Shown: positions 2,096 to 58,643 of the stretch, piece after piece
Numbering within the stretch: position 1 is the stretch's first letter
How the letters are laid out: each line of letters begins with the position of its first letter
DNA from: an uncultured virus (IMG/VR IMGVR_UViG_3300050015_000370)
Lineage: Duplodnaviria; Heunggongvirae; Uroviricota; Caudoviricetes
Length of the DNA stretch: 64,000 bases
IMG/VR virus record: IMGVR_UViG_3300050015_000370
Reading direction: 5' to 3' (one strand)
Position numbers and translations under genes: made by a program
The notes under the pieces: model-generated
What the model was told of the DNA's origin: nothing
The model's input: only the letters and a program-made list of their open reading frames with translations
Database searches by the model: none

Positions 2096-2634
2096 TGAAA
2101 AAACTTTATAAATATATCTTAATACTCATAATTGTAATCTCATCCATTATGACAGTGGTTGAAATTTCCAATAAACAAAGGGAATTCAATAAATTCTATT
2201 TTCCAGAAACATTGATTGTCCATAACCACACAAATAATCTTAAAGCTGATACGATAACGATGATCATTCTTAATAAGATAATGAAATATGATGACTTAAC
2301 TGTGGAGATATATGTGCTTAAAAATATTTTTGATACTCATGAATTGATAGTTCTAAGTAAGATAGAAAAAAATAAATTCTATAAACATAATTACAAACTT
2401 TATATAAAGAACGAATTAAGATTTGGCACATTGGTAGATGTCATAGCACATGAAATGGTCATGATAGATCAGATGGAAACAAATAAACTTCAATTATTAG
2501 GAGATGGATATGTATGGAAACGAGATTCAGCCAAATATTCAAGGGTAGAATATTATGATAGATCATACGAAGTAGCCGCGTTTAAAAGACAGATGGATAT
2601 AGTCAAACAATTAAAAAATCTTTATATTAAATGA
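2095..2634 (+). CDS. Membrane-anchored zinc metallopeptidase-like protein with degenerate motif (HEMVM)
   Basis: N-terminal hydrophobic helix; IAHEMVMIDQM and YYDRSYEVAA; paralog of 4143..4673. Confidence 0.6.
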   Translation: MKKLYKYILILIIVISSIMTVVEISNKQREFNKFYFPETLIVHNHTNNLKADTITMIILNKIMKYDDLTVEIYVLKNIFDTHELIVLSKIEKNKFYKHNYKLYIKNELRFGTLVDVIAHEMVMIDQMETNKLQLLGDGYVWKRDSAKYSRVEYYDRSYEVAAFKRQMDIVKQLKNLYIK

Positions 2635-4127
2635 ATATTGTAAATGAAAATATAATTAAAAGTTTCACTAGAAATGAAAATAAACTTTCATCTTTGGGAG
2701 TAGGCAAACAAAAGATGATAAAGGATTGGTTGGATAAGTATGGAATAGAAAATTACAGAATAAATGATGATCTGAGGATTGACACATTCTCAAAAGTAAA
2801 TTGTGGTCATATGACTATTGTTGAATTTCCACCTTTTATACAATTTAGAAAAGCATACACACATTTCAATATAGATAATTGCGGTTTGACTTCATTAAGA
2901 GGATGTCCATATGAAATTGAGGGAACATTTGAGTGTTCCAATAATCCTTTAACTTCGTTTAAATTTTGTCCAAAGATCATAACAAGAAATTTTGCAATAG
3001 AAAATACAGAAATAACTTCATTTGATTTTGCTCCAGAATTTATAGGCAACATAATGTATATTCATCTGAATAAATTTACTCCTAAACAAATAAAGGATTA
3101 TTATGATACTGGATCAGTTAGAACAATTCATTCAAGGTTTGGTGGTTTAGGATCAGAATATCTCGATACGGATTTTATAAACTTAGATGAAAGTTTCATA
3201 AGGGGAACAGACGATAAATTAAAGTCTCTTGGAGTAGGTAAAAAAGAATTGATAAAAAAATGGTTGGAGAAACATGACATTAAATTATATACGATAAATG
3301 ATGATTTAACGATAGATGTCGGTAATGTAGATTTAGAAAATATACAAATATCTAAATTTCCTGATTATATAAAATTTGGAATGGTTAGCGGTTCAATGTG
3401 GTTAGTAAATAATGGTTTGACTTCACTTATAGGATGTCCTGATACTATCGAAGGAAGTTTTCAATGTAATAATAATCTTATAACCACTCTTAAAGGCGGG
3501 CCATCATCTGTAGGAGGAAATTATGAATGTGATCATAACCAATTAACAACATTGGTTGGTTGCGCAAAGAAAATAGGTAATGATTTTTGGTGTGGTGATA
3601 ACTATATACCTTTTGATGAACTCAAGAAAAATCTAAAAGATATTAAGGTGAAAGGAAGATTTTACACTGATTATAATGAAATAAACAGGATGAATGAATC
3701 TTTTTCAAAAACAACCAATAAGATTGAATCTCTTGGTATTGGCAAGATAGAAATGATAAAGAATTGGTTGGAGAAACATCATATACATAATTATTCTATA
3801 AATGATGATTTAACGATAGACATAGATGGTGATATCAAACATGTAAATTTAATGAAAGGGAATCTTCCTGATTATATACAATTTAATGAGGTTAGTGGTG
3901 ATTTCTTTTGTACAAATTGTGATTTAACATCTCTAAAAGGAATGCCCATAAAAGTTTATGGAATTTTTGGAATGGGATATAACCCAAATATAAAATCTTT
4001 AGAATATATGCCTGCATACATAGGTGGAAATTTTTACTGTAAAGGAGTTGGAGATAATATAAAAAATATGATACATGATCAATTTCTTGACCGTACAGTG
4101 TTAAAAGGATACATGTATCTTGATTAA
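2631..4127 (+). CDS. Variable LRR-like family protein (3 tandem units)
   Basis: Three header+repeat units joined by INLDES and RMNES. Confidence 0.85.
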   Translation: MNIVNENIIKSFTRNENKLSSLGVGKQKMIKDWLDKYGIENYRINDDLRIDTFSKVNCGHMTIVEFPPFIQFRKAYTHFNIDNCGLTSLRGCPYEIEGTFECSNNPLTSFKFCPKIITRNFAIENTEITSFDFAPEFIGNIMYIHLNKFTPKQIKDYYDTGSVRTIHSRFGGLGSEYLDTDFINLDESFIRGTDDKLKSLGVGKKELIKKWLEKHDIKLYTINDDLTIDVGNVDLENIQISKFPDYIKFGMVSGSMWLVNNGLTSLIGCPDTIEGSFQCNNNLITTLKGGPSSVGGNYECDHNQLTTLVGCAKKIGNDFWCGDNYIPFDELKKNLKDIKVKGRFYTDYNEINRMNESFSKTTNKIESLGIGKIEMIKNWLEKHHIHNYSINDDLTIDIDGDIKHVNLMKGNLPDYIQFNEVSGDFFCTNCDLTSLKGMPIKVYGIFGMGYNPNIKSLEYMPAYIGGNFYCKGVGDNIKNMIHDQFLDRTVLKGYMYLD

Positions 4128-4142
4128 AAATAATTCATTAAT

Positions 4143-4673
4143 ATGGAAAAATATTGGAAATATATATTTGGTATAATTGTTTTAGGATTTCTTATCTATA
4201 TCCTAACAGCCAACAAACCCGCATATAATAACTTTACATTTCCACAAACTATCACAGTTCATAATTATACAAGCAATCCAAAAACTGATACCGTAGCCAT
4301 GGTAATCTTAAATAAGATAATGTTGTATGATACTATGACGGTTAACATATATAAATTGAATGATATTTTTGACAACCAAGATTTTGTAATAAACGCCCAT
4401 GTTATAAAAAATGTATTTGTTCCACATACATACAACATATTTATTAGAAGTTATTTAAATCTTTATACGATAGAATATTCCTTATCACATGAATTCATAC
4501 ATATTGATCAAATGGAACGTAATAGGTTGATAATATACCAAAATACATATTCATGGAATGATACAATATATAATATGAAGGATGTTAAATATGAAAATAG
4601 ACCTTATGAAATTGAAGCTTATAATAAACAAACTTTAATATACGATAAACTTATTAACATATATAAGAAATAG
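4143..4673 (+). CDS. Membrane-anchored HExxH zinc metallopeptidase-like protein
   Basis: N-terminal TM helix; LSHEFIHIDQM and YENRPYEIEAY motifs. Confidence 0.7.
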   Translation: MEKYWKYIFGIIVLGFLIYILTANKPAYNNFTFPQTITVHNYTSNPKTDTVAMVILNKIMLYDTMTVNIYKLNDIFDNQDFVINAHVIKNVFVPHTYNIFIRSYLNLYTIEYSLSHEFIHIDQMERNRLIIYQNTYSWNDTIYNMKDVKYENRPYEIEAYNKQTLIYDKLINIYKK

Positions 4674-4725: not shown

Positions 4726-6162
4726 ATGCAATTACCTCTTTACACAAATAACACTAAATCATATAGCATTCTTGAGGTCTTAAATAACACAATGTTGGGA
4801 TTTGTTTATGAATTTTATTCATCGAAAAAACCAGAATTTATTGTAAATGATCTAGGTAAGTTAATAGGTAAAAATATTACATTAACAAGTTTTGATACAT
4901 ATACACCATCACAAACAAATGCGATCCTTATAAAGGAATACAACGCACCAAAACCAAAGTATCGTCTAAATATTGCATTTGAACGTTATAGTTCAATTAT
5001 ATCTACAATAAACAACATAAGTAAATGGATTAATGAGACAGCTGAAACATCTCATGATACACTAATGCGCGTGAATCTTATGTTTGACCATGCGAATTTA
5101 AATACCATACATACTGTTTCTAAAATGCAACCATCAAAATTATTGTTGAAATTTGATGAATCCTTTGTGTATGATAGGTTTCCTTTACAAAAAGAGTCTG
5201 CATTTGTACTTTCAACAAAAAAGATAATCCCAGTAAATACTTATATCAATGAAAATTCCATAATCACAAGTATTTCAGAGGTTACAAGTTCTCCATTTGC
5301 TGATTTTTATGGCATAAATTTTTCGGATTATACTAGAGGAATATTACAATTCAATTACATAGGTGGAAAAGATTATGCAAAGTATCCAAAAAATATTACA
5401 GATGTTTTAGAATATTATATAACTAAGGCATATCAAAGTTTAAATAGTTCAGAATTAAATAAGGATGAAATAGAAAATATAGAAAAAATATCAGAGGAAC
5501 ATCGTAAACTTCAGTACAGCTTCTATAACATAGATTATGCTTTAAATGAGTATAAGGATATTAAATTGAGCGTCAATATGTCGAAGGAACCTCAGATAAT
5601 TAGATCATATTGGCAGATGATAAGAAAACCTCTTTTTGAAGCGATATTCAATTCAAATTTAAGAAAGGGAGAATTTAACTTTGACACTGATACTGAGAGA
5701 GGTCAGATTCGCAATGCAAAATTATCAAATGTTTTGTTAAAGAATTTTGACATTGTAAAATGCGAGCTTAATGGAGTATTGGAGAATTGTAGTATATGGG
5801 CATCAAAAATTGACAAATCTAGAATATGTGAAAGTAAATTAATTTCGGGTAATAAAGTATCCAATTCATACTTAAAGAAGGTAGACGCAGAAACCGATAA
5901 TAATATAAACAAAAGTTTTATAATGAATGAAAGCGAGATAATCAATTGTAGGTTATCTGGTACTATTGTAAAATTTGGCGAACTAGGAAAAAGAGCACAG
6001 CTCGATGAAAGCTGTGTAATCATAAAAAAGGATGTTGAACCAATAAAATATACATCTGGAATAGAGGTATCAGAAGTAAGAGATCATAATTGGCTAGCAT
6101 CCTTAAGTGGTAAAAGTCCAAAGGGTTTCGCAAATGAATACAGAAACAAGTATGACAAATAA
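4726..6162 (+). CDS. Amidoligase-like protein with degenerate catalytic motifs and a C-terminal beta-helix-like region
   Basis: LGFVYEFYS ... RVNL ... FYGINF ... LQFNYIGGKDY resembles the GxExE/HxN/KYxxN/EFR pattern; repetitive I/L-x-x-S/C tail. Confidence 0.4.
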   Translation: MQLPLYTNNTKSYSILEVLNNTMLGFVYEFYSSKKPEFIVNDLGKLIGKNITLTSFDTYTPSQTNAILIKEYNAPKPKYRLNIAFERYSSIISTINNISKWINETAETSHDTLMRVNLMFDHANLNTIHTVSKMQPSKLLLKFDESFVYDRFPLQKESAFVLSTKKIIPVNTYINENSIITSISEVTSSPFADFYGINFSDYTRGILQFNYIGGKDYAKYPKNITDVLEYYITKAYQSLNSSELNKDEIENIEKISEEHRKLQYSFYNIDYALNEYKDIKLSVNMSKEPQIIRSYWQMIRKPLFEAIFNSNLRKGEFNFDTDTERGQIRNAKLSNVLLKNFDIVKCELNGVLENCSIWASKIDKSRICESKLISGNKVSNSYLKKVDAETDNNINKSFIMNESEIINCRLSGTIVKFGELGKRAQLDESCVIIKKDVEPIKYTSGIEVSEVRDHNWLASLSGKSPKGFANEYRNKYDK

Positions 6163-7147
6163 ATTAGTTAAGGAGATTTTAGGCAATACATTTTCAAGAG
6201 GAGGAGATGATAAAATATCGTCTTTAGGAATAGGAAAAATATCTTTGATTAAAAAGTGGTTAGAAGAATTAGAGATAGATGAATATAGAATAAATGATGA
6301 TTTTTCAATAGATATAGAACATACTTTAACATTTCATGTTTCAGAAGTTGATAAAAAATTTCCAGATTATATTCAATTTGGTACAATACAAGGTAATTTT
6401 ATCATTGAAAAATGTAACTTAGAAACTCTCAGAGGATGTCCATATTCTGTGTTTGGATCATTTTTTTGTGAACATAATAATCTAACATCTCTTAAATATG
6501 CACCAACACACGTTCGTACAAATTTTTATTGTTCTTACAATAAAATATCAGTGGATGAAGTCAATAGATATGAAAAAATGGGATATGTTGCAGGTTTACT
6601 TAGAAGTGATTTCGATAAATGGGTTCCTACATTTGGACTAGCTGAATCATTCACAAAAAATAATAAGACAAAATTAGAAGGTTTGGGTTTAGGTAAAAAA
6701 GCATTAATAAGAAAATGGTTAGAGGATCATAAGATATTTAATTATAAAATAAATGATGATCTTTCTATAAATGTGAAAGGCGATGTTGTAATAGTTGGAG
6801 AAATTATTGAAAAATTACCAAACTATATCCAATTCAATGAAATAGATGGTAAATTTAAAATAAAATTTTGTGAGTTAGCATCACTAAAAGGTTTTCCAAT
6901 AAAGGTATTTAACGGTTGTTCTTGTGCTGGAAATAAATTAGAATCTCTTGAATATTGCCCAAAATTTATAGGTAATGATTTTTTCTGTGATGGAAATTTA
7001 TTAAAAGATTTGAAATTTATTCCAGAAAATGTAGGTGGTGAAATGTATGTTTCTAGAAATTCATCACTATCTTTAAATGATATTTTAACGATTAATAACG
7101 AAACTTGTTATAAAATAATTAGTCATGATTATCCAGAATCGTTTTAA
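6152..7147 (+). CDS. Variable LRR-like family protein (2 tandem units)
   Basis: Start placed at ATG 6152 (MTNKLVKEIL, matches family leader); units joined by GLAES. Confidence 0.85.
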   Translation: MTNKLVKEILGNTFSRGGDDKISSLGIGKISLIKKWLEELEIDEYRINDDFSIDIEHTLTFHVSEVDKKFPDYIQFGTIQGNFIIEKCNLETLRGCPYSVFGSFFCEHNNLTSLKYAPTHVRTNFYCSYNKISVDEVNRYEKMGYVAGLLRSDFDKWVPTFGLAESFTKNNKTKLEGLGLGKKALIRKWLEDHKIFNYKINDDLSINVKGDVVIVGEIIEKLPNYIQFNEIDGKFKIKFCELASLKGFPIKVFNGCSCAGNKLESLEYCPKFIGNDFFCDGNLLKDLKFIPENVGGEMYVSRNSSLSLNDILTINNETCYKIISHDYPESF

Positions 7148-8365: not shown

Positions 8366-8395
8366 ATAGAGATATATAATTAAAAATATCTCTAT
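8366..8395 (+). promoter_or_regulatory. Late promoter GATATATA (8371-8378) embedded in a 10-bp hairpin that sequesters the endonuclease start codon
   Basis: ATAGAGATAT (8366-8375) pairs perfectly with ATATCTCTAT (8386-8395), which includes the AT of ATG 8394. Confidence 0.65.
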
Positions 8396-9050
8396 GGATA
8401 ATATTAAAAAACACAATTATACATATGTAATTGTAAATTTAATAAATGGAAAATTATATATTGGAAGTAGATGTACAAATATAGAATTAGATAAATATAT
8501 GGGTTCTGGAAGATTAATAAAATTTGCTATAAAAAAATATGGAGTTAAAAATTTTAAAAGAATTAATTTAAATGATTTTGAAACGCCTCAAGAAGCAAGA
8601 AATAAAGAAGAAGAATATATAAATCTATTTAAATCATTAAGTCCTAGTGGATATAATTTGCATCCAAAAGGAGGATGTTCTTATTTTGAATATTCCGAAG
8701 AATCATTAATGAGATTCAAAAAACTTAGATTAGGCAAATCATATAATGAAATTTATGGTGTAGAAAAAGCTAAAGAAGTAAAAAACCATATTTCTGAAAA
8801 TCATGCTAGATTTTGGGAAGGGAAAACACAAAGCAAAGAAACTATAAAGAAAAAAGCTGATGCAAATAGAGGGCAATTAAGAACAGATGAATCTAAAAAT
8901 AAAATTAGACAATCTCTTTTAGGTGTTAAATTTTCAGATGAAAGATGTAAAAATATATCTAATTCTCTTAAAGGAAATTCAAATTTAGCAAAAAATTTCG
9001 GAGGACCAAAATTTGGATCTGAAAACCCTTTCTTTAAATGTGTGTCTTAA
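8394..9050 (+). CDS. Free-standing GIY-YIG homing endonuclease (Seg-like) with NUMOD3-like repeats; frame continues past the TAA to 9197
   Basis: YTYVIVNLINGKLYIGS, YMGSG, KKYG..NFKR, GYN, repeated S.E...KIS.SL.G; 48 more open codons with HTH-like character after TAA 9048-9050. Confidence 0.85.
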   Translation: MDNIKKHNYTYVIVNLINGKLYIGSRCTNIELDKYMGSGRLIKFAIKKYGVKNFKRINLNDFETPQEARNKEEEYINLFKSLSPSGYNLHPKGGCSYFEYSEESLMRFKKLRLGKSYNEIYGVEKAKEVKNHISENHARFWEGKTQSKETIKKKADANRGQLRTDESKNKIRQSLLGVKFSDERCKNISNSLKGNSNLAKNFGGPKFGSENPFFKCVS

Positions 9051-9202: not shown

Positions 9203-9700
9203 ATGTTTGTTCGTGGAAATGAAAGTAAGTTAGACACATTAAATATTGGTAAAACCGTTTTAATAAAAAGTTGGCTTAAATCAATGAATATTTATGAAGG
9301 TGATTATAAAATAAATGAAAATTTAACCATAGATCTATATGTTAATCATAATTTTAGGTTTAATAAAAATCTTATAATTGGAGGATGTCTTCCAGAATAT
9401 ATTCAATTTAATGTATGTGTTTCTGATTTTCATCTTTCTAATTTAGAGTTAACATCTTTGAAGGGATCTCCTTATAAGGTGTTAGGAACATATTTTTGTT
9501 CATACAATCCTAGGTTATTATCTCTTGAATACGCGCCTATATTTATTCAAGGAAATTTTATGTGTACAGGTAATCCAAATATAAACAGTAAAATTGTAGG
9601 AAAATATTTTGAAGAAAATACTGTAAATCATTATCAAACATCCATAGATTTTAAAACTTTAGGAGAGAACTATGATATAAAATATAAAAATAAATGGTAA
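9203..9700 (+). CDS. Variable LRR-like family protein (1 unit)
   Basis: FVRG..SKLDTLNIGK..LIKSWL header, LPEYIQFN, LTSLKGSP repeats. Confidence 0.8.
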   Translation: MFVRGNESKLDTLNIGKTVLIKSWLKSMNIYEGDYKINENLTIDLYVNHNFRFNKNLIIGGCLPEYIQFNVCVSDFHLSNLELTSLKGSPYKVLGTYFCSYNPRLLSLEYAPIFIQGNFMCTGNPNINSKIVGKYFEENTVNHYQTSIDFKTLGENYDIKYKNKW

Positions 9701-14603: not shown

Positions 14604-15809
14604 TTAAAATTTAAAAGTTATTTTTTCATCTTCAAAATCGTTTATTTTAGCTTTCAACTTATCTCCGAGTTTAAATAGATTTTCATTCATCTTATTTTTG
14701 CGAAACTCTCGCACAGGTAGTGAACCTTTGATATCATCTACTTCTACTATAAATCCTGATTTTGTATAATCAACAAGTTTAACTTCAATATCTATATCCT
14801 TATTATCAAGGACCCATTTATAGATGCGAATCATCTTTTCTGCATAACTTTCCTCGCTTAATATGATCCTATTATATTTACTAATCTCAGATATGTAAAA
14901 TTCAATAGCTTCACCAGATTTAAACTCACGAGCGTTAAATCGTTCAAGTGTTTCTGGATGCATTTTTGATGTATGTAGTAATCCTGTAAAAATTTCATCA
15001 AACTCAACAAATATACCATATGCAGATGTTCCAGTTACATAACCACTGTGTTGCTTTGTTAGATCTAACTCCTTGATTTTAATAGGGATAATGTAATCCA
15101 AATATTTTTTATGAGATACAATAAATGAGGCCATATCATTAAGATAATCTTCAACCATAACTATCACTTCCTTACCGATCATAGCATTAAAATCGTAGAT
15201 CTTGTTAGGAGCTGCTAACGATCCTGGCATAAATGCTTGAATTCCTTGAACTTCACAAAAGAATCCACCTCTATTTGCATCAATTATCTTTGCTGTATAT
15301 GCCTTTGTTGGATTTGCAATCTGTTGCATAAATTCTGTGCGAAGAGTGTTTAGATAACCTTGCCATAGTGAGAATTTTAGGTTTGGTTTCGATTCGATGA
15401 TGCTAACATATAATTTGTTTGCAACAAACCCTGCGGCGAAATCTGGGTTTTTTAGTAAGTCACAAAATTCTTTTACATCGATATAACCAAATACCTGTAG
15501 AAGTTTCTTTTCATCATTGAAGTTTACCTCCAAAGTAAATCCGCTCATCAATTGGACTGTTACGCGAGAATCGACAACATTTTTGATTGCAGTTACCAAT
15601 ACTTGGTCACCACGCTCCAGGTCCTTCTTCACCACTGTGAAATTGTCATTGTTAATAAGGTCGAATAGTTGTTGGGAATAAACTTCTCTAGAGAAGCATT
15701 TAGTGTGTTCGGTTGTACCTTTGATCTTAGTGTTTGGAACTAAACGGTTACCACCTTTGAAAGAACTGTCATAAGCCGACCAGTTAAATTCTTCATTTTG
15801 TCTGAGCAT
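14604..15809 (-). CDS. Ribosomal protein S1-like protein (multiple S1/OB domains)
   Basis: NRGGFFCEVQGIQAFMPGS, YGIFVEF..IFTGLLHTS, RIILS, GFIVEV..IKGSLP are S1-domain signatures. Confidence 0.8.
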   Translation of the reverse strand: MLRQNEEFNWSAYDSSFKGGNRLVPNTKIKGTTEHTKCFSREVYSQQLFDLINNDNFTVVKKDLERGDQVLVTAIKNVVDSRVTVQLMSGFTLEVNFNDEKKLLQVFGYIDVKEFCDLLKNPDFAAGFVANKLYVSIIESKPNLKFSLWQGYLNTLRTEFMQQIANPTKAYTAKIIDANRGGFFCEVQGIQAFMPGSLAAPNKIYDFNAMIGKEVIVMVEDYLNDMASFIVSHKKYLDYIIPIKIKELDLTKQHSGYVTGTSAYGIFVEFDEIFTGLLHTSKMHPETLERFNAREFKSGEAIEFYISEISKYNRIILSEESYAEKMIRIYKWVLDNKDIDIEVKLVDYTKSGFIVEVDDIKGSLPVREFRKNKMNENLFKLGDKLKAKINDFEDEKITFKF

Positions 15810-35454: not shown

Positions 35455-35919
35455 TCATTCGAGTTCAATAAAATCTGTGTGGAGTTCTCCGGTAAATGAT
35501 ATTGAATCTATATAATCTTTAATAACTTCTTTTGATAAAGATGTATGTCTACAATAAAATTCTCTTTTAATATATTTTGGAGCAAATTCTAGTGATGTAA
35601 TATTATTTGCTTCACAATCAAATATATCATTTACACATCTTGGACATCCTCTTAATGTAGTTAAATTATTATCATCTATTCTAAAATTTCCATCAACAAT
35701 ATCAAATTGGATATATTCTGGAAGATTACCAATTGAACGTTTTTCTAAATATACGTTACTTGTGACGCCTATACTATAATCATCATTTATATAATATTTT
35801 CTTATATTGTATTTTTCTAACCATTCTTCAATAAGTTTTTTTCTACCAATTCCTAAAGATGATAGTTTTGAATCAGAAGATCCTCTTTGAAAATTCAAAT
35901 GTTCATTTATAAGTTTCAT
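35455..35919 (-). CDS. Variable LRR-like family protein (1 unit), isolated copy
   Basis: MKLINEHL leader; FQRG..SKLSSLGIG...IEEWL; LPEYIQFD; LTTLRGCP. Confidence 0.85.
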   Translation of the reverse strand: MKLINEHLNFQRGSSDSKLSSLGIGRKKLIEEWLEKYNIRKYYINDDYSIGVTSNVYLEKRSIGNLPEYIQFDIVDGNFRIDDNNLTTLRGCPRCVNDIFDCEANNITSLEFAPKYIKREFYCRHTSLSKEVIKDYIDSISFTGELHTDFIELE

Positions 35920-35920
35920 A

Positions 35921-37714
35921 CTATTTTACCTTAAGACTTGAATTTTCATCTGTTAAGGCCTTGTTTGTCGCTTGTAATTCTAAAATTTGAGCATTTAGAT
36001 CACTAACAGTTGTTAATTTATCATAATTGGCTATAACAGCGTTGTAATTACCATAACTAAAATATACACCTTCATAAAATGTATATTGAGTACCATCAGC
36101 ATTTTTTATTATGATAGAATAATTGTTATTTTTTTGCAACATCAACTTATCAATCTGAGAACTCATTATCTTAAATTCTAATTCTCCAATTACAGTGTTC
36201 ATATTAGTAGAATATGTTGGTGATAGTTCTATCTTTGAATTATCATCTAACTTAAACGTTAATGCATAATTATATGCACCTGAAAGGTCTACATTTATTT
36301 TACTATTTGATGTTGAAAATTTTTCAAATTTAAATTTATATATAGAATCGTTGGATTTCAGGAATAGAGGTCCTGTTCCCTGTGGGAAAACTTCATTGTT
36401 ATAATTTAATACAACTGTTGTTGTATCAAAATAAAGTTTTGTATATTTTGTTTGTGTAACTTTATTATTTACTAAATTCGCCGATTTTTCAGATTCTATC
36501 TTATTATAGACATTATATGGAATGATGTTGTCAACGTTCAACCTAGTAAATTTAAGCCCGTATTTTTTGGGATCCATAGAAGCAAAAGATGCCTTTCTTA
36601 TTATCTGTGTACCGTCCATTCTATTCAAAAGTCTACACACATATTGTATGATATAACTTGTGTCAAGGTCGGCATTACGTAAAACAGGTCTAAACATATT
36701 TGAACTTGCAAAATTATCCTCCTGTGTAAAAACAAATTTTTGTGTTAATAATGATGCTCCACCACCGTTTCCAATCATACTTTCATAAACATATATCTCA
36801 TGCATTAACACCCACTTGGCGGATGCTTCACCATAAATATCAGCGAATTCTTGATAATTATCGTTTGGATTATTTGATGTATATAATTTTATTCTACCGC
36901 TTTCTATATCTGCCATATGTTGTCCTATAACATCATCTGCCCAGGTTGCATAGTATTCAATAAAATCGCCATATGTAGATTCATATATGATACAATTAAA
37001 ATTATCGGCCACACTTGATACCGGTATTTGAACATTTGAATATTCATTGGCAATAAATGTATTGTTTATAACACTATCTATTTCACTATATATTATATAA
37101 ATATCACTTAACGCATTTATTAATAATGAATTTCCTAAAAGTGTAGACCTATCAGATGATAATGCTTGTACAGAAGGTATTTTAAATAGAATATATTTAT
37201 CGTAAAATTTATTACCAAGATGTAAAACATTTGATGAAAATTGTACGACTGCAGCTGAAGATAATGCGTCCGCTTGTTTTATATACGTAAAATTAGAAAG
37301 ATCAACAAGGTTGCCAGATTCGCTCATCGCTCTTATCTGACATAAAAACCCGGCAATGTCATCAAAATTATATCCTGAAACAAAATGTAATTTTATGGTG
37401 TCATGATTATATTGGCCAACACTTGATACATTTGTAGATGAATCAAATAAATTTACATATTGTGTTATATCCAAAGGATTTATCCACCATGAGGTTCTTA
37501 GAGAATTTGATGGTTCCGCATTAAATTCAAGCACATTATTTGTTATACCTAATGAATTTGGTTTATTGGTATTGAAATATTGTTTAGTTCCTAATTTAGT
37601 TGTAGCTATTTTTGCTCCTAATGTAGAAAGATTTAACGTAACATTATCACGGTTCATCTCATATTCAACCAAACAAAAATCAGATATAGCGATATATTTA
37701 CTTATATTATTCAT
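35921..37714 (-). CDS. Hypothetical protein, probably structural
   Basis: 597-aa ORF with GATATATA upstream; C-terminal coiled coil. Confidence 0.6.
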   Translation of the reverse strand: MNNISKYIAISDFCLVEYEMNRDNVTLNLSTLGAKIATTKLGTKQYFNTNKPNSLGITNNVLEFNAEPSNSLRTSWWINPLDITQYVNLFDSSTNVSSVGQYNHDTIKLHFVSGYNFDDIAGFLCQIRAMSESGNLVDLSNFTYIKQADALSSAAVVQFSSNVLHLGNKFYDKYILFKIPSVQALSSDRSTLLGNSLLINALSDIYIIYSEIDSVINNTFIANEYSNVQIPVSSVADNFNCIIYESTYGDFIEYYATWADDVIGQHMADIESGRIKLYTSNNPNDNYQEFADIYGEASAKWVLMHEIYVYESMIGNGGGASLLTQKFVFTQEDNFASSNMFRPVLRNADLDTSYIIQYVCRLLNRMDGTQIIRKASFASMDPKKYGLKFTRLNVDNIIPYNVYNKIESEKSANLVNNKVTQTKYTKLYFDTTTVVLNYNNEVFPQGTGPLFLKSNDSIYKFKFEKFSTSNSKINVDLSGAYNYALTFKLDDNSKIELSPTYSTNMNTVIGELEFKIMSSQIDKLMLQKNNNYSIIIKNADGTQYTFYEGVYFSYGNYNAVIANYDKLTTVSDLNAQILELQATNKALTDENSSLKVK

Positions 37715-37817: not shown

Positions 37818-38870
37818 CTATTTAAAATATTTAATCCATATTTTTTTAGTTTTATTAGTATAACGTGTTAATAGATATTGATTTGTTTTTACATTAAATT
37901 TTGTAAAAAAATATGTAAGCCACAATTTAAATAATATACTGTTTGTATTTGTTGGGTTTGACATAAATATCGGATTCATCCATCCAATTTCGTGTGATCC
38001 AACCAATGGAATACCTTTGCTTATTAAATCAGCACCAACAATATTAAAAGTTTCTGAGAATGATACTTGCATACCCATATCCATACTTTCACATAATTCT
38101 AAAAATTCTTCTCTTGGCATCCAAGTATGCTCAATTAATTTATGTTTTTGGTTTGATAATTCTTGGAATAGTCCGATCAAATTTTTATGAACAGAATCGC
38201 CTTTCATTTCATATCTGCCTATATTGATATGAAAATGAAGTATCTTACCGATAGATTCAGCAAACTTTATGGCTGCTATCGCTTGATTTAGATGGTTTTT
38301 AAGAGGTCTAATAGCACCAAAACATGCTATATTGATAACTTCATTTCCTTTATTAAATTTCTTAATTTTATAATTTTGTGGAAAATAGTTAGGCAAATAT
38401 ATAACCTTTTCGTCTTCATTTTCAATACAATCATTTTGAGTATTGATATAAAATTTAAAATCATTAAAAATTCTTTTTGCGTTAAAGGCTATTATAACAT
38501 TATCAAATTTTACATATTCGCTGAGCCATGTCATTGCGTTTCCTTCATTTGCAATAAATGGTATCTCACTGTGCATACGTATTATCCATTTTATGTTTGG
38601 GTGAAGTTTCTGTAATATTTGAAATTTTTCAGGAACAACCCAAAGAGCTTCAATGATAACATGAGTTGGTTTGTATTTTGTAACCTCTCTATCAATGTCA
38701 TTATTATCATTGACTACAACCATATTTGATTCGATACCCGCAAAATAAAGCATTTGATCCACAAATTTTGCAGAGTTATATAAACCTGTACTTAAACTCT
38801 CATTATAATTTTTTGTAAGATCATAATCACTTCTTTTCTTTAAAATAAATAGAACTTTATTTGTTGTCAT
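37818..38870 (-). CDS. GT-B fold glycosyltransferase (family 4-like)
   Basis: FGAIRPLKN and SFSETFNIVGAD...GIPLVGS motifs. Confidence 0.75.
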   Translation of the reverse strand: MTTNKVLFILKKRSDYDLTKNYNESLSTGLYNSAKFVDQMLYFAGIESNMVVVNDNNDIDREVTKYKPTHVIIEALWVVPEKFQILQKLHPNIKWIIRMHSEIPFIANEGNAMTWLSEYVKFDNVIIAFNAKRIFNDFKFYINTQNDCIENEDEKVIYLPNYFPQNYKIKKFNKGNEVINIACFGAIRPLKNHLNQAIAAIKFAESIGKILHFHINIGRYEMKGDSVHKNLIGLFQELSNQKHKLIEHTWMPREEFLELCESMDMGMQVSFSETFNIVGADLISKGIPLVGSHEIGWMNPIFMSNPTNTNSILFKLWLTYFFTKFNVKTNQYLLTRYTNKTKKIWIKYFK

Positions 38871-38921
38871 TTGTTTTTATTTTATATATACAAAAATGCC
38901 ATGAAAAATTGGTCTATTATG

Positions 38922-39013
38922 TTAACATTTTTTAACTAAATTAAACGAAACCTTTCTCGTGGCAGGAGTATAAGTAGTAACTTCATCCCCATTTAAAAAA
39001 CTTAAGGGAGCTG
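38922..39013 (+). repeat. 92-bp direct repeat, copy 1 (contains AAAC-N17-TATAA)
   Basis: 91 of 92 nt identical to 39158..39249. Confidence 0.95.
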
Positions 39014-39157
39014 GTGAGAAATTTATACTTTAAATCATATATTTTATCAATTATCCGTTTCACCTCGAATAACCCATGTGTATCCAAATTCATTTGTTGG
39101 TGTAACTTATTAAACACTTCTAATCATTAAAAAATCACCCTGGATCACTATAAAAAT

Positions 39158-39249
39158 TTAACATTTTTTAACTAAATTAAACGAAACCTTTCTCGTGGCA
39201 GGAGTATAAGTAGTAACTTCATCCCCCTTTAAAAAACTTAAGGGAGCTG
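39158..39249 (+). repeat. 92-bp direct repeat, copy 2
   Basis: Single difference from copy 1: CCCCATTT vs CCCCCTTT. Confidence 0.95.
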
Positions 39250-39284
39250 AAATAAAAACATATGGGTTTTGTTCGAATTTTAAT

Positions 39285-39326
39285 TATATTTGCATATCAA
39301 AACATATATTGGTTTACATCATATAA
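39285..39326 (+). promoter_or_regulatory. TATATTTG (-7 type, 39285-39292) plus AAAC-N18-TATAA (39300-39326) upstream of the polymerase C-half
   Basis: Both motifs recur elsewhere in the window. Confidence 0.6.
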
Positions 39327-39341
39327 CATATAAAAAGAATA

Positions 39342-39482
39342 ATGGAGCAAGGAAAAAAATACATAATTGAAGATATCGAAAGTTGTGAGCAAATAGGAGA
39401 ATTTTCCAATGAATTTGTATATGATATAGAGGTAGATGATGAATCACATACCTTTATAGTAAATGATATTTTGGTGCATAAT
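39342..39482 (+). mobile_element. Split intein C-fragment (IntC) in PolB, Ser+1
   Basis: Ends His-Asn before Ser; has no block A or B. Confidence 0.9.
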
Positions 39483-40307
39483 TCTTCATATGTAACATTT
39501 AAACCTGTAATGGATTCGTGTGGATTTGTACCATCAGAGAAAGTAGATGGTGTTGCTTTCATATTGAAAATAAAGGAATATCGATTAGATGGAATGTTGG
39601 ATGAAAAATTTGATGAATACGCAAAGAAATTCAACACTGAGAATTTACAAGTATTGGAACTCGAAAAAATATCACACTCTGTTATGATGATCGCAAAGAA
39701 AAAATATATATTGGATCTTGCATGGAAAGACCCAGGTATGAGATTCCCGCCACAAACAAAGATAAAATGTGTAGGTATAGAAATTGCCCAAGGTTCTACA
39801 CCAAAATTTGCAAAGAAGGTACTCAACGAACTTATCATTCAACTTTTAAGGGAACAAAAAACTATCAGATATGTTGATCTTGTGCGTAAATTAAAGGAAT
39901 ATAAAAAGGATTTTATAATGCAAAGTCCTGAGGACATAAGTAAGGTGATGAGTCTTGGAGATTATGAAAAATTTGTTCTTGATGATAAGAATTCTGTTAA
40001 ACTTGCAAGTAAATGTCCTTATCATGTAAGAGGAGGTGCTAATTATAACTACCAATTGAATAATTCAAAATGGAAGGGAAAATACAGACATATACGAACA
40101 TCTGATAAGGTAAAATTTTATGCAACTTCTGCAGAATGCGAGGTATTCGCTTATCTACCAGGAGATCTTCCATATGAATTTGCACCACCAATAAATTACG
40201 ATGCTCAGTTTGCAAAGGTAATTGTTGAACCTTTCAATAGGTATATCAAAACAATGGGTTTTCAGGAAATACCTTCCAATTTAATTTATGCAAAAAACCT
40301 ATTTTGA
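39342..40307 (+). CDS. Family-B DNA polymerase (gp43-like), C-terminal half fused to a 47-aa split-intein C-fragment
   Basis: VYDIEV...HTFIVNDILVHN|S intein blocks F/G; then S.YV (end of DTDS motif), LELE, AKKKY, GIEIAQGSTP, CPYHVRG PolB motifs. Confidence 0.9.
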   Translation: MEQGKKYIIEDIESCEQIGEFSNEFVYDIEVDDESHTFIVNDILVHNSSYVTFKPVMDSCGFVPSEKVDGVAFILKIKEYRLDGMLDEKFDEYAKKFNTENLQVLELEKISHSVMMIAKKKYILDLAWKDPGMRFPPQTKIKCVGIEIAQGSTPKFAKKVLNELIIQLLREQKTIRYVDLVRKLKEYKKDFIMQSPEDISKVMSLGDYEKFVLDDKNSVKLASKCPYHVRGGANYNYQLNNSKWKGKYRHIRTSDKVKFYATSAECEVFAYLPGDLPYEFAPPINYDAQFAKVIVEPFNRYIKTMGFQEIPSNLIYAKNLF

Positions 40308-42249: not shown

Positions 42250-42432
42250 ATGGATGAATTTATTGAAAATGAGATTGTTGTAATGAAATATCTCAACGGT
42301 TCTACAACAAAAATGATATTCATAGGTTATGATACAGATGGTTTTGTTAAATTAAAGCCTCTGTATTTTTCATGTGCGTACCCTTTTTTAATTCATAAAG
42401 ATAAAATATCAAAATATAATGATAAAGCTTAA
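42250..42432 (+). CDS. Hypothetical protein
   Basis: ORF in operon. Confidence 0.5.
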   Translation: MDEFIENEIVVMKYLNGSTTKMIFIGYDTDGFVKLKPLYFSCAYPFLIHKDKISKYNDKA

Positions 42433-43039
42433 AGAAACTGACGATATCTGGTTTACTTCAGACCCTCACGTTTCACATAATAATATGTGTCGTGGTGTAA
42501 GTGTTTGGACAAATCTTGAAAGTACTAGAGATTTTCCCACCGTCCATGATATGAATAAGATGATCACGGCAAATATAAATAAATGTGCAAGCAAGACTTC
42601 ACATCTATTTCTTTTAGGTGATTTAATGTTTGGCGATAAGCATTATGACAGATTTTTTGATCTTATTGATTGTGAAAATATTTATGTTATTTATGGAAAC
42701 CATGATAATATTAATCTCTTAAAAGAATGCACACATCCTAAATTAAAATTTCAAGGTTATTATGAAAAATTAATGGTAGGAAAAAAGGAGATCATTCTGT
42801 CTCATTATCCTATTTTTTCTTGGGAAAATTCACAAAGAGGTTCATGGATGTTATTTGGTCATTGTCATAATACACTTAAGGATTTAACATATCTAAAAAG
42901 GCGTTGTTTTGATGTAGGTATTGATTGGGCTGAATTTAGACCTTATAATTATTTTGAGATTAAGGAGATAATGAGATTGAAGGAAATTTTAGTTGTTGAT
43001 CACCATGATCCAAATGATAATGGACACACAAATCAATAG
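42419..43039 (+). CDS. Calcineurin-like metallophosphoesterase
   Basis: SDPH, LGD, GNHD, SHYP, FGHCH motifs. Confidence 0.85.
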   Translation: MIKLKETDDIWFTSDPHVSHNNMCRGVSVWTNLESTRDFPTVHDMNKMITANINKCASKTSHLFLLGDLMFGDKHYDRFFDLIDCENIYVIYGNHDNINLLKECTHPKLKFQGYYEKLMVGKKEIILSHYPIFSWENSQRGSWMLFGHCHNTLKDLTYLKRRCFDVGIDWAEFRPYNYFEIKEIMRLKEILVVDHHDPNDNGHTNQ

Positions 43040-52675: not shown

Positions 52676-52978
52676 ATGGCAAAAAAAGTTGCAGCAACAA
52701 GTCAGTCGAGTTTTTCAGATTTGAATGAGATACTCAATAAGGTGAGTCCTAATGGGGATATGCTTATAGATTCCCCTTTCTGTAAAATAGATGAATATAT
52801 TGGCACCGGTAGTTATATTTTAAATGCGGCTTTGAGCGGCAGCTTATTTGGAGGATTACCAAACCGTAGGTCTTTGGCGCTTGCTGGAGAGGAAGGATGT
52901 TTGGTTGGCGATGAATTTGTACGAATATACGAATTAAAATCTGATTTAACTCAAAATCATAAAATAATTAAATCATAA
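52676..52978 (+). CDS. uvsX: UvsX/RecA-like recombinase N-terminal part (74 aa) plus a 26-aa split-intein N-fragment
   Basis: IGTGSYILNAALSG...GGLP..R...LAGEEG, then CLVGDEFVRI (intein block A). Confidence 0.88.
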   Translation: MAKKVAATSQSSFSDLNEILNKVSPNGDMLIDSPFCKIDEYIGTGSYILNAALSGSLFGGLPNRRSLALAGEEGCLVGDEFVRIYELKSDLTQNHKIIKS

Positions 52979-53476
52979 TTTATGGAAATCGAAAAAATTA
53001 AAAAGGAACTCGAATATGTTTTTAATGCTAATGAACTTAAAACATTTTTAGGAAAACCTATTTCTGAATCTTCAGAAGAAATCATTAGGATGAAATTTAA
53101 TGAGTACGCATCAACAAACTCAAAGAAAATTAAAATTAAGGATTTAATTGAAAATTATCAAGAAAAGTCATTCCTTATTGCTACACCTGATGGTTATAAT
53201 GAAGTAGGGGATTTTTATATTAAACACTCGCGCCCTATTTATGATATTACCACAGAATTCGATTTTAAAACTAAATGTTCTGAGGATCATAAATTTGAAA
53301 CGATGACAGAATGGAAGTTTGCAAAAGAATTGACACAAGAAGATTTTTTGTTAACACTTTCAGGGTATCAAAGAGTTGTAAATATCACAAAATGTATAAA
53401 TGAGGTGGTTTATGATTTTGAGGTAAAACATGATAACCACAGATATTGGTCAGGCACTGGAATAAGCAGCCATAAT
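52898..53476 (+). mobile_element. Atypically split intein in the UvsX P-loop (IntN 26 aa; IntC 165 aa; Cys1, Thr+1)
   Basis: C1 at 52898; CSEDH block B, VYDFEV block F, SHN|T block G; removing it restores GEEGTGKT. Confidence 0.9.
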
Positions 53477-54604
53477 ACAGGCAAGACATTCATTGCTTTA
53501 AGTATATGTCGCGAAGCTCAGATGATGGGGTATACCCCAATCTATTTTGATACAGAAGGTGCAATAGATTTAAAGTTTGTATCTAAAATTGGTGTTGATC
53601 CTGCCAAACTTCGACATGAACCTATAGCAACAATAGAGGAGTTTGCTACGTATATGGCAAAGTTAAATGAAACCTTCTTCAATATGAAAAAGGAAGGTAA
53701 AATTCCGCCGAAGGTAATTGTGGTTCTTGACTCATTGGGTAACCTTTCTTCAAATAAAGAAAAAACAGATACTACTGAAGGAAATGATAAACGAGATATG
53801 ACCAAACAACAGGCTATTCGTAGAACCTTTAGAGTTGTCGGTAATGATTGTGCAATGAATGGTATCCCATGTATCTATTTGGCTCATACGTATGCAGTTA
53901 TAGGTGGTTATTTTCCTTCAAACACGATCGCAGGTGGCGGAGGTCTTAAATATAATGCTTCAATCATATTCATGTTATCTAAATCAAAGATGGAAGATAA
54001 GGAAGCTGAAGAAATTGCAAAATCAAAAAATGTTGAAAAGGCAAAAGTTGGCATCATTGTAACAGTTACTCCAAATAAAAATCGTTTTGCAAAACCAATT
54101 AAAGTACAATTTCATATTCCATTTTATAAACCAATCAATAAATATGTTGGATTAGAAAATTTTGTATCTTGGGAGAATTGTGGAGTTGTGAGAGGAAAGG
54201 CGTTAACAGAGAAGGAACATTCTAAACTCTCTCCAGTTGAACAAAAAACTTGTCATGAATTTTCTAGTCTAGATGGTAAATTACTTTTCGCTCTTCCAAA
54301 GGAAACAGCAAGAACGTTAGTATGTAAACATCTTGGTGGAGAAATTCCTCTGATAGAACTTTTTACTGCAAAGGTATTCACAGATGAAGTATTGAGAGAA
54401 CTTGATGATAAAGTGATAAAGAAAACTTTTGAACTACCTGATGTTAACAGTCATGATGATATACTCGAAATGACAGAGGAACTTGAAAGAGCTTCAATGA
54501 AAGATGATACTGATAATGATGCTCCAATGGTTACAAACGCTGAAATTGATACATCATTTATTGATGCGTTAGAAGGAAATTCAATCGAACATTTTAAAGA
54601 TTGA
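52982..54604 (+). CDS. uvsX: Split-intein C-fragment plus UvsX/RecA-like recombinase C-terminal part
   Basis: HN|TGKT, FDTEGA, VLDSLGNL, DMT, GGGGLKYNAS, KNRF. Confidence 0.9.
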   Translation: MEIEKIKKELEYVFNANELKTFLGKPISESSEEIIRMKFNEYASTNSKKIKIKDLIENYQEKSFLIATPDGYNEVGDFYIKHSRPIYDITTEFDFKTKCSEDHKFETMTEWKFAKELTQEDFLLTLSGYQRVVNITKCINEVVYDFEVKHDNHRYWSGTGISSHNTGKTFIALSICREAQMMGYTPIYFDTEGAIDLKFVSKIGVDPAKLRHEPIATIEEFATYMAKLNETFFNMKKEGKIPPKVIVVLDSLGNLSSNKEKTDTTEGNDKRDMTKQQAIRRTFRVVGNDCAMNGIPCIYLAHTYAVIGGYFPSNTIAGGGGLKYNASIIFMLSKSKMEDKEAEEIAKSKNVEKAKVGIIVTVTPNKNRFAKPIKVQFHIPFYKPINKYVGLENFVSWENCGVVRGKALTEKEHSKLSPVEQKTCHEFSSLDGKLLFALPKETARTLVCKHLGGEIPLIELFTAKVFTDEVLRELDDKVIKKTFELPDVNSHDDILEMTEELERASMKDDTDNDAPMVTNAEIDTSFIDALEGNSIEHFKD

Positions 54605-55279: not shown

Positions 55280-56755
55280 ATGAGTTCAGAAGTAGGCATA
55301 AATAGTTATCAAGAGATAGTATTCTATCATTATATCCTGGGTGATATGATGTTAACATCTAACACAAAGTCAGAATATTTTTCATCTCCTATATTAAAGG
55401 AGCTATTTGATATTTCAAAGGAACATACATTGAAATATAAAAGTCCTCCTTCTAAGGAACAATTATCTGAAATAGTAAGAATAAAGGGTGCAGCTTCGAA
55501 GATCAATGAAGATATCATAACCACAATTTATAATACAAAGGAAAAACTCGCAGAGTATGATAGTGAATGGTTAGATAATAATGTCAAACCTTGGTTACAG
55601 GTAAGAAATCTTGACAGTGTTATGCGTAAGGCCATTTCATATATGAAGATGACTAAAATAACACCCGAAAATGCAAGTGAAACTGTCGAAACTATAAGGG
55701 GAATGTTATTGACAGAAACCGCTTTGAATTTTGATTTTAATATAGGTTCTGACTTTTTTAATCCTGCATCACATCTTCAAACAAGGTTAGATAGAACATC
55801 CACAGGATATTCATATATGGATACATGTTTAAAGGGTGGTTTTTGGAAAGGATCGTTAATAGTGATATTATCAGGGCCTAAGGCAGGAAAATCTACGTTT
55901 TTAGGTAACCTTGCGGCAAACTCAGTTCAATTAGGTCACAACACTGCATATATTTCATTTGAATTACAAGAGGAATTAGTAAATATGAGATTAGGTTCTA
56001 ACCTTTTAAATATCAAATTGGATACATATGAGGAAACAGCAAAGGATCAAGTTTTCCTAAGAGAACGCATGACATCGGTTAAACAAAATAGCATTGTACC
56101 TCTTGGTGCTTTGCATGTCAAAGAGTTCGCTGCTTCAACATGTTCAACTGTTGATCTTCGTAACTATTTAAAGAAAACAGAGGAAATTTTAGGGATCCAT
56201 TTTGACACTGTGTTTGTTGACTATATCAACATTATGAAAAACTGGAGAAATCCTAATACTGAAAATTCATATATGAAGATCAAACAGATTGCAGAGGATT
56301 TGAGGGCAATGGCCATAGAAGGACAGTGGGCCATAGTATCTGCAACACAAACTGGTAAACAAGCATGGGATACGAATGATTTGGTTATTAGTAATGTTTC
56401 CGAATCTGCAGCATTATTACATACAGTAGATGCTTTATTTGGTTTGATAACTAACCCAGAGATGAAAGCCAGAAATGAATATTTTGTAAAATGTTTAGCC
56501 AACCGTGTTGCCGGTTTTGAAAATACAAGGAAGAGGTATACAATTGATTGGAATTATGCAAGGATAGATGAGGATAGAAACTCACCAATTCAAGATATGG
56601 ATTTCAGTATACCACAATTTGGAAATCATAACCAAAATCATACATCATATGGAAATAACCCCGGAAGCAGTACATATGGTCAATCAATTCAACCCGAGGA
56701 AACAGATGAGTATAAAAAAATAGCCGAATCGATAGATTTATTTAAAACAAATTAA
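55280..56755 (+). CDS. Replicative DnaB-like helicase (T4 gp41-like)
   Basis: GPKAGKS, ISFEL, VDYINIM, IAEDLR, SATQ, SES motifs. Confidence 0.9.
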   Translation: MSSEVGINSYQEIVFYHYILGDMMLTSNTKSEYFSSPILKELFDISKEHTLKYKSPPSKEQLSEIVRIKGAASKINEDIITTIYNTKEKLAEYDSEWLDNNVKPWLQVRNLDSVMRKAISYMKMTKITPENASETVETIRGMLLTETALNFDFNIGSDFFNPASHLQTRLDRTSTGYSYMDTCLKGGFWKGSLIVILSGPKAGKSTFLGNLAANSVQLGHNTAYISFELQEELVNMRLGSNLLNIKLDTYEETAKDQVFLRERMTSVKQNSIVPLGALHVKEFAASTCSTVDLRNYLKKTEEILGIHFDTVFVDYINIMKNWRNPNTENSYMKIKQIAEDLRAMAIEGQWAIVSATQTGKQAWDTNDLVISNVSESAALLHTVDALFGLITNPEMKARNEYFVKCLANRVAGFENTRKRYTIDWNYARIDEDRNSPIQDMDFSIPQFGNHNQNHTSYGNNPGSSTYGQSIQPEETDEYKKIAESIDLFKTN

Positions 56756-58548: not shown

Positions 58549-58643
58549 TACATTTATATATTCTTTAAATAATAAATTTTCAGTTTTTATAATTATTTTT
58601 CGGGTTTTTCAATTAAAAAATGTTTAGATTCGGATTTTTTAGT

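Follow-up and report, generated by a model that had tools for sequence, protein, structure and literature searches.

How does a phage assemble a B-family DNA polymerase when the gene for the part that follows the catalytic DTD motif opens with one piece of a split intein, and the matching piece is not beside it? Such a gene lies at positions 39342–40307 of the window, by which we mean the whole 64,000-nucleotide stretch of DNA analysed here. The window is bases 1–64000 of one linear virus record of 74,852 bp, which is rated 18% complete and would therefore belong to a genome of roughly 400 kb. All 15 of the 15 runs listed as holding some of its DNA are labelled peat metagenome; of four runs compared with the window, the best match may be its source. 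We consider it likely that constitutive trans-splicing to a distant partner gene rebuilds the DTDS motif, and the evidence for this, together with the alternatives, is set out below.

The gene encodes the last of three polymerase pieces

The gene and its two parts are as follows:

39342–40307, + strand: gp43B2-like gene, IntC plus C-terminal PolB piece (rest of palm, thumb), 321 aa; layout as in Aes123 gp43B2
39342–39482, + strand: IntC, 47 aa, 13 D/E vs 2 K, C-terminal V-H-N
39483–40304, + strand: C-extein, 274 aa, first residue Ser+1, equivalent to RB69 residue 624

The original prediction of a 47-aa acidic IntC ending in VHN, followed by Ser and the PolB sequence that comes after DTD, was confirmed by the reading frame and by alignment to RB69 gp43. 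N47 and S48 of the window protein stand opposite RB69 residues 623 and 624 (D-S; C-extein alignment E 4e-10), which supports the proposal that this is a genuine IntC of Aes123 PolB1 type, placed at DTD|S. The insertion site is PolB motif C, DTD|S; DTD-S is also found at the IntN start in contiguous relatives and in the metagenomic locus L295, discussed below. In a motif scan the C-extein lacked the catalytic Asp residues of both motif A and motif C. Pfam placed DNA_pol_B at residues 94–216 and Intein_splicing at residues 9–47, the latter under the cut-off (E 0.009), and residues 4–50 aligned to the PolB16 intein (E 7e-6). The IntC has a net charge of −11, is 58% identical to Aes123 IntC (38 columns) and 72% identical to PTm1 IntC, and in the Aes123 alignment retains the Asp of block F (YDIEV). 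When a contiguous relative was used as the query, the best solved-structure match of the intein was PDB 9HTH (E 8e-23), which PMC11923092 describes as the Aes123 intein.

The homologues (best 120 of 566) indicate how such a polymerase is built. Among these 120, intein-free B subunits of ~390 aa (387–395 aa) begin with the second fingers helix and include DTDS; contiguous-intein forms (n=10, 546–561 aa) carry a mini-intein of 156–169 aa at DTD|S; and IntC-led forms (n=43, 312–325 aa) resemble the window protein. Most of the corresponding N pieces measure ~235 aa and consist of a ~119-aa extein that ends in DTD and a ~117-aa IntN with Ser first. The exonuclease and motif A reside in a separate ~490-aa A gene, 24–58 kb from the B gene, in 5/5 intein-free relatives (one of the five records is complete, 405,016 bp), and this A subunit stops after motif A and the first fingers helix. 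One further locus, L052 (8663–11170), has a B-subunit frame with two tandem intein-like blocks near DTD and another insertion in its C part.

The gene at 39342–40307 is the gp43B2 of a three-gene polymerase (gp43A, gp43B1-IntN, IntC-gp43B2), and is thus the last of three pieces, not a C-half. The earlier description as a C-half was right about the C-terminal PolB piece but wrong about the half, since in the intein-free relatives a third gene, gp43A, carries the exonuclease and motif A. Similarly, a partner is indeed missing, but it is a middle piece of ~240 aa rather than an N-half.

The splicing residues are strongly conserved. Ser1 and block B TxxH are invariant in 39/39 N proteins, as is the His of R-H-x-V-x-K, which aligns with a His of Aes123 and is probably the motif NX histidine of PMC10189870. 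On the C side D28, H46, N47 and S48 are invariant in 33/33 proteins, and a full-length ORF with intact HN|S was found in 5/5 members of the window's cluster and in a relative at 87–88% identity. The split, judged from the window IntC and the L295 IntN, is of the typical kind, with a short IntC (47 aa), a long IntN (117 aa) and opposite local charges. Judged by its sequence, the gene looks functional and mostly of a known kind, the Aes123 type.

Could the intein halves instead merely dock, keeping the polymerase pieces in contact without any splicing? In its fingers this polymerase already copes with a non-covalent split (PMC3061061), and docking domains of this sort are described in a fragmented ribonucleotide reductase (PMC3045599). 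However, the invariance of Ser1, TxxH, His-Asn and Ser+1 over the 39 N and 33 C proteins, the position of the intein directly on the catalytic DTD, and the in vitro splicing of the Aes123 intein from the same site (PMC11923092) make docking without splicing extremely unlikely.

The partner gene is absent from the contig

No ExtN, IntN or gp43A was found in the whole 74,852-bp contig by tblastn (13 queries), four HMMs made from relatives or a search of the genome record, and the ORF list and HMMs gave no endonuclease ORF upstream of the IntC gene in the window. Partner-free DNA extends at least 39.3 kb upstream and at least 34.5 kb downstream of the gene, so the original statement that no partner lies within 39 kb upstream or 23 kb downstream holds, with a longer downstream span. 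Just upstream of the gene lies a repeated element:

38922–39013, + strand: direct repeat copy 1, 92 nt, holding a promoter-like motif variant; candidate recombination point
39158–39249, + strand: direct repeat copy 2, 92 nt; a 90% identical copy is present in L295 (947–1034)

This repeat is where an assembler might have made a chimeric join, in which case the IntN gene would truly be adjacent. Logan contigs of run X1 stop at both repeat copies without bridging them, and repeat depth in that run is ~2.6–3.7 times that of the flanks (24–33 vs 9), so further copies may exist. In L295, moreover, an IntN gene is followed by the same element. Against such a join, the independent assembly L001 has the same order across 4,008 nt at 93.5% identity, and its own two repeat copies are only 88–98% alike to those of the window. 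The genes after the element in L295 are unrelated, and depth on the two flanks is even (9.09, 8.73). The misassembly near 39.0–39.3 kb that had been raised as a caveat is, given the shared gene order in L001, very unlikely. L001 (a 93% identical relative) also has a 182-aa ORF between the IntC gene and a methyltransferase (3997–4545) that is missing in the window.

With 82% of the genome missing from the record and no partner on the contig, the gene could also be a leftover, with its role taken over by an intact B subunit or a different polymerase encoded outside the record. The intact full-length ORF with HN|S in all five cluster members and in the 87–88% relative speaks against decay, as does the existence of a matching orphan IntN gene in L295. 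Furthermore, no single-chain or second intact PolB was found in 5/5 split-intein records scanned, three of which are 96–100% complete (the PF00136 scan overlooks some C pieces, with zero in G001, and was used solely for long intact frames). Just one match (563 aa) occurred among longer proteins at E<=1e-20, which is weak evidence on the same side. We therefore regard a non-functional remnant as very unlikely and retain the reading that the gene works with a distant partner.

Uncoupling of the two genes in relatives

The frequency of such separation was measured on 110 loci that form 51 clusters at 90% identity, with C genes that were truncated or had a C-extein score <=100 left out. The IntN gene lies 76–2,624 nt upstream of the IntC gene in 47/51 clusters. 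In the remaining 4/51 the partner is not near the IntC gene: the window's cluster, L037, L051 and a lineage that reads TAG as Gln. Together with the contig-wide search, this bears out the earlier claim that the partner gene is not adjacent. L037 and L051 are whole 44-kb records without an N gene. In the TAG=Gln lineage the IntN gene is on the same contig, 59–62 kb downstream of the IntC gene, in three contigs.

In this lineage (L072 7199–10927, L131 9989–11915; L041/L130, L047/L127) gp43A and the IntC gene are 1.1 kb apart, and an endonuclease-like ORF follows the distant IntN gene. Assignment of the lineage to the Jug group was considered and dropped; Jug phages are without recoding according to PMC12880540. 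Two other loci are of a related kind: in L113 (9887–12072) an endonuclease-like ORF comes after an IntN gene, in L051 (9135–10711) a different endonuclease-like ORF comes before an IntC gene, and neither record holds the partner. These two are possibly one more uncoupled phage, as their contig names share a sample number.

Where the N and C genes are adjacent, the spacer in most cases contains an ORF of ~380 aa with homology to the VSR endonuclease of Aes123; that of a close relative is 36% identical to it (E 2e-41). Spacers of close relatives range from 58 to 1,206 nt and pass from the full ORF through remnants (412, 202 and 154 nt) to a bare 58 nt.

To place the window's layout in this series, it was compared with a complete relative, G003, for which two features matter:

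35921–37714, − strand: gene inverted relative to G003; marks a rearrangement upstream of the IntC gene (synteny)
42419–43039, + strand: metallophosphoesterase, ancestral downstream neighbour of the polymerase B gene (Pfam, synteny)

The downstream block is kept (metallophosphoesterase, UvsX and further ORFs, read as a putative helicase, Mre11 and Rad50), while the block that is the upstream neighbour of the window gene sits ~88 kb away in G003. With the downstream side kept and the upstream side broken, it would be the N gene that left and the C gene that stayed. The window layout would have required at least two rearrangements.

L295 as the likely partner

A scan of metagenomes, in which 80 of 483 matches were kept, yielded L295 (1,971 bp). 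It carries an ExtN-IntN gene of 242 aa, made up of a 125-aa ExtN ending in DTD and a 117-aa IntN with Ser first, an SVDG start and TADH as block B; the IntN is 35% identical to that of Aes123. The gene is not succeeded by an IntC. A copy of the 92-nt element, 90% identical to the window's, lies ~150 nt past its stop and is followed by unrelated ORFs. A search of 353 loci (5.55 Mb) found the element nowhere but in the window, the L001 contig and L295; in viral contigs it was confined to the L001 contig, apart from three chance matches of 18–19 nt. L295 also shares a 64-nt motif stretch with the window at 58616 (E 4e-8). The other uncoupled lineages yielded no shared element of this sort, and neither the viral-contig scans nor a GTDB scan revealed an orphan N gene of the close group. 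The element may, however, be a multi-copy promoter, in which case it is a lineage marker and need not mark the breakpoint.

Phylogeny neither joins nor separates the pair. The L295 protein falls in a small divergent group (P0169, P0171, P0173; 82–99%), and the window protein groups with P0002; the stems of the two lineages are long and of similar length (0.54 and 0.51). A joint clade of the two was not rejected (p-AU 0.51, 0.84), in trees that place neither lineage firmly, and one quick tree put the L295 clade elsewhere. In a pairing of distance profiles, L295 ranked 34/60 for the window C piece and 40/60 for P0002, whereas 7/7 true adjacent pairs ranked 2–13. The power of the tree test is low, as the pair P0164/P0052, probable from the equal length of their longest contigs, was not joined either. 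On balance, an L295-type gene is probably the partner of the window's gene in its phage.

Charge of the intein fragments

The acidic IntC had been put forward as a reversal of charge complementarity; comparison with the family shows that this is not new. IntC is acidic in 51/51 split clusters (9–16 D/E vs 0–5 K/R), as it is in Aes123 (11 D/E, 0 K/R) and PTm1 (14 D/E, 0 K/R), and the last 43 residues are already acidic in 10/10 contiguous inteins. By these alignments an acidic IntC is typical of the family and nothing new. The polarity varies from intein to intein (PMC12707363), that of DnaE being a negative IntN and a positive IntC (PMC2677866).

The accompanying expectation that the partner IntN would be basic holds for the family: the last 60 residues are net positive in 119/119 split N proteins (one frameshifted row excluded). 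In Aes123, IntN and IntC measure 120 and 39 aa, with net charges of +8 for the IntN tail and −11 for the IntC. The last 60 residues of the L295 IntN have 13 K/R vs 7 D/E (net +6). Taken whole, it has a net charge of −2, the least basic of the set; its cluster has values of −2, −1 and +1 vs a median of +8 (n=119). Cysteines number none in the L295 IntN and one in the window IntC.

Promoter-like motifs and regulation

Two short motifs precede the IntC gene:

39284–39293, + strand: TTATATTTGC motif
39299–39326, + strand: promoter-like motif AAAAC-N17-ATATAA, 15 nt before the start codon

The TTATATTTGC motif is one that we take to resemble the Bacteroidota −7 element TAnnTTTG. The form TTATATTT[AG]C, including the copy at 39284, occurs 12 times in the contig vs 1.95 expected. 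AAAAC-N17-ATATAA occurs five times in the window vs 0.48 expected and 0/100 shuffles reached five, for a motif that was spotted by eye before counting. In G003 a spacer of 17 gave 29 motif matches, compared with 1–14 for spacers of 12–22. The original prediction gave the gene promoters of its own; this gains no support from a sigma-70 scan, which was at chance level (15 sites vs 13.9 expected), but is supported by the enrichment of AAAAC-N17-ATATAA and TTATATTT[AG]C. The named relatives and the TTATATTT[AG]C motif suggest a Bacteroidota host.

AAAAC-N17-ATATAA is also found before uvsX (52629), the ORF at 55280 (55233), the IntN gene of L295 and G003's intact B gene. It precedes 12/15 N genes, allowing a spacer of 16–18 or one variant base, but only 7/17 intact B genes and 2/8 adjacent C genes. 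The L001 counterpart is off by one base. The 92-nt element holds a variant of the motif, and such a repeated promoter element may have served as the recombination point. A structured RNA at the repeat was considered and is not claimed (fold of five copies −3.3 kcal/mol, 0/9 pairs covarying); Rfam gave a single chance match (E 0.8) on 38700–39500.

Might the two genes be under different control, so that trans-splicing gates the onset of phage DNA replication? The genes are unlinked, the IntC gene has an extra TTATATTTGC motif that is missing from the 65 nt of L295 sequence ahead of its gene, and the likely partner IntN is unusually weakly basic. Yet the IntC gene, the L295 gene and uvsX have AAAAC-N17-ATATAA in common, which counts against such a switch. 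The genes are adjacent in 47/51 clusters, and the A and B genes are 24–58 kb apart even without an intein, which makes dispersal part of the common genome shuffling in the group. A regulatory switch is thus very unlikely, and the post-translational switch of the original prediction gains no support from two genes that share a promoter-like motif with uvsX. The simplest reading is that both polymerase pieces are ordinary co-expressed replication genes.

A second split intein and other genes of the window

The window holds one more split intein:

52676–54604, + strand: UvsX/RecA, encoded as two ORFs that a second, atypically split intein links; halves 3 nt apart

The ORFs are 52676–52978 and 52982–54604 (both +), with an IntN of 26 aa (Cys1) and an IntC of 165 aa (Thr+1). 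Relatives share the position of the stop, and in most of them ~1.2 kb separates the halves; some forms are contiguous (L003). Because the break in this intein is close to its N-terminus (26 + 165 aa), cross-reaction of the polymerase IntC with it appears improbable, and in a mixed pair most of the fold would be either missing or present twice.

A GIY-YIG endonuclease is encoded at 8394–9050 (+) and an S1-domain protein at 14604–15809 (−). The contig also holds a family of paralogues with an N-terminal leader like MK-x-I-x-E...F-x-RG...KL...LGIG, most with 9–38 matches in G003, at 2–523, 513–1115, 1112–2095, 2631–4127, 6107–7147, 9203–9700, 35455–35919 and 64751–65785, with more up to contig position 74787.

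Proposed history and mechanism

From the forms present in relatives, we infer the following history. A mini-intein would have invaded the B gene at DTD|S, and a Vsr-like homing endonuclease gene would then have split the intein and later decayed. A rearrangement, possibly at the promoter-bearing ~90-nt element, would have carried the IntN gene off, leaving the IntC gene beside its old downstream neighbours.

The partner would be a piece of ~240 aa, running from the fingers helix to DTD and followed by a Ser1 IntN, and is likely to lie far off in the same incompletely assembled genome. The acidic IntC would capture the basic IntN tail, as is known for Aes123 and DnaE types (PMC11923092, PMC12707363). 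Oxyester chemistry of Ser1 and Ser+1 would then join D-T-D to Ser and restore the DTDS active-site motif. The spliced B subunit would be ~400 aa (125 + 274 aa), like the intein-free forms of 387–395 aa, and would dock non-covalently on gp43A through the split fingertip, in the manner known for T4-like bicistronic gp43 (PMC3061061). An IntC at DTD|S whose partner is not adjacent thus supports the earlier proposal that trans-splicing between distant genes is likely to be needed.

Discussion

The closest described system is Aes123 (GenBank JN377899.1), with gp43A, gp43B1 carrying the N-intein, a VSR endonuclease and gp43B2 carrying the C-intein, the same three-gene PolB. The likeness extends to the DTD|S site, Ser1/Ser+1, an IntN of ~120 aa with a basic tail, an acidic IntC and, in the window's relatives, a Vsr-like spacer gene. 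The Aes123 genes, however, are contiguous within 4.4 kb, whereas the window has no endonuclease and no partner within 34 kb.

Tenacibaculum phage PTm1 and the Prevotella Lak phages are the nearest named records (34–41% to the C piece). They too have an ExtN-IntN gene, an IntC-ExtC gene and a separate gp43A-like gene (Lak by tblastn), but their N and C genes are ~0.3–2.1 kb apart. In Lak only gp43A is remote, by ~6 kb in Lak-B6 and ~222 kb in Lak-A1, and in 15/15 Lak records listed the IntN and IntC genes of the polymerase are near neighbours, with the gp43A-like gene at another locus. The Lak taxonomy paper (PMC11165621) nowhere uses the words polymerase, intein or split in its main text.

In T4-like phages with bicistronic gp43A/gp43B the fingertip is split non-covalently, as in the window's relatives (PMC3061061); the spacing there is 2 bp to 3 kb vs 24–58 kb in those relatives. 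The intein split of the window's polymerase comes on top of this one. Nanoarchaeum equitans PolB and cyanobacterial DnaE are likewise replicative polymerases encoded in separate loci and joined by trans-splicing, and Neq Pol is likewise cysteine-less. They differ in being cellular and two-piece, and DnaE has the opposite charge polarity.

The fractured-gene model of Dassa et al. 2009 (PMC2677866) orders these states. Its steps I–III (intein, endonuclease invasion, endonuclease loss) are all present in relatives, and its step IV, uncoupling, corresponds to the window locus; for that step the paper cites only cyanobacterial DnaE and N. equitans PolB. The arrangement of two gene parts flanking a free-standing endonuclease gene, by which that paper recognises fractured genes, is present in relatives and absent in the window. 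Parts in separate loci of one genome are seen on a single contig only in the TAG=Gln lineage, and for the window would follow from its pairing with L295.

Neither the intein nor its charge nor the three-gene polymerase is new. What is new is that a phage has its split-intein polymerase genes uncoupled, a state found in up to four lineages; we found no report of it in the open-access literature, including the accessible text of PMC8861304, PMC12619734 and PMC12880540. A far broader reading would be that large Bacteroidota-type phages repeatedly scattered their polymerase over three distant genes, that obligatory active-site trans-splicing acts both as a replication-timing gate and as a means of exchanging polymerase pieces at the protein level between co-infecting phages, and that the weakly basic IntN drifted into an orthogonal, nearly cysteine-free ligation pair. 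We hold this to be unlikely.

According to PMC12707363, only a few natural split inteins of such kind are efficient as tools, and the family described here is a pool of more than 100 natural Ser1/Ser+1 split-intein candidates. Orphan IntC-PolB genes on large-phage contigs are to be read as gp43B2. The locus offers a phage example of the last, uncoupled step in the fractured-gene model, its predicted step IV, and since every earlier step occurs at the same insertion site in close relatives, the model can be traced within one allele.
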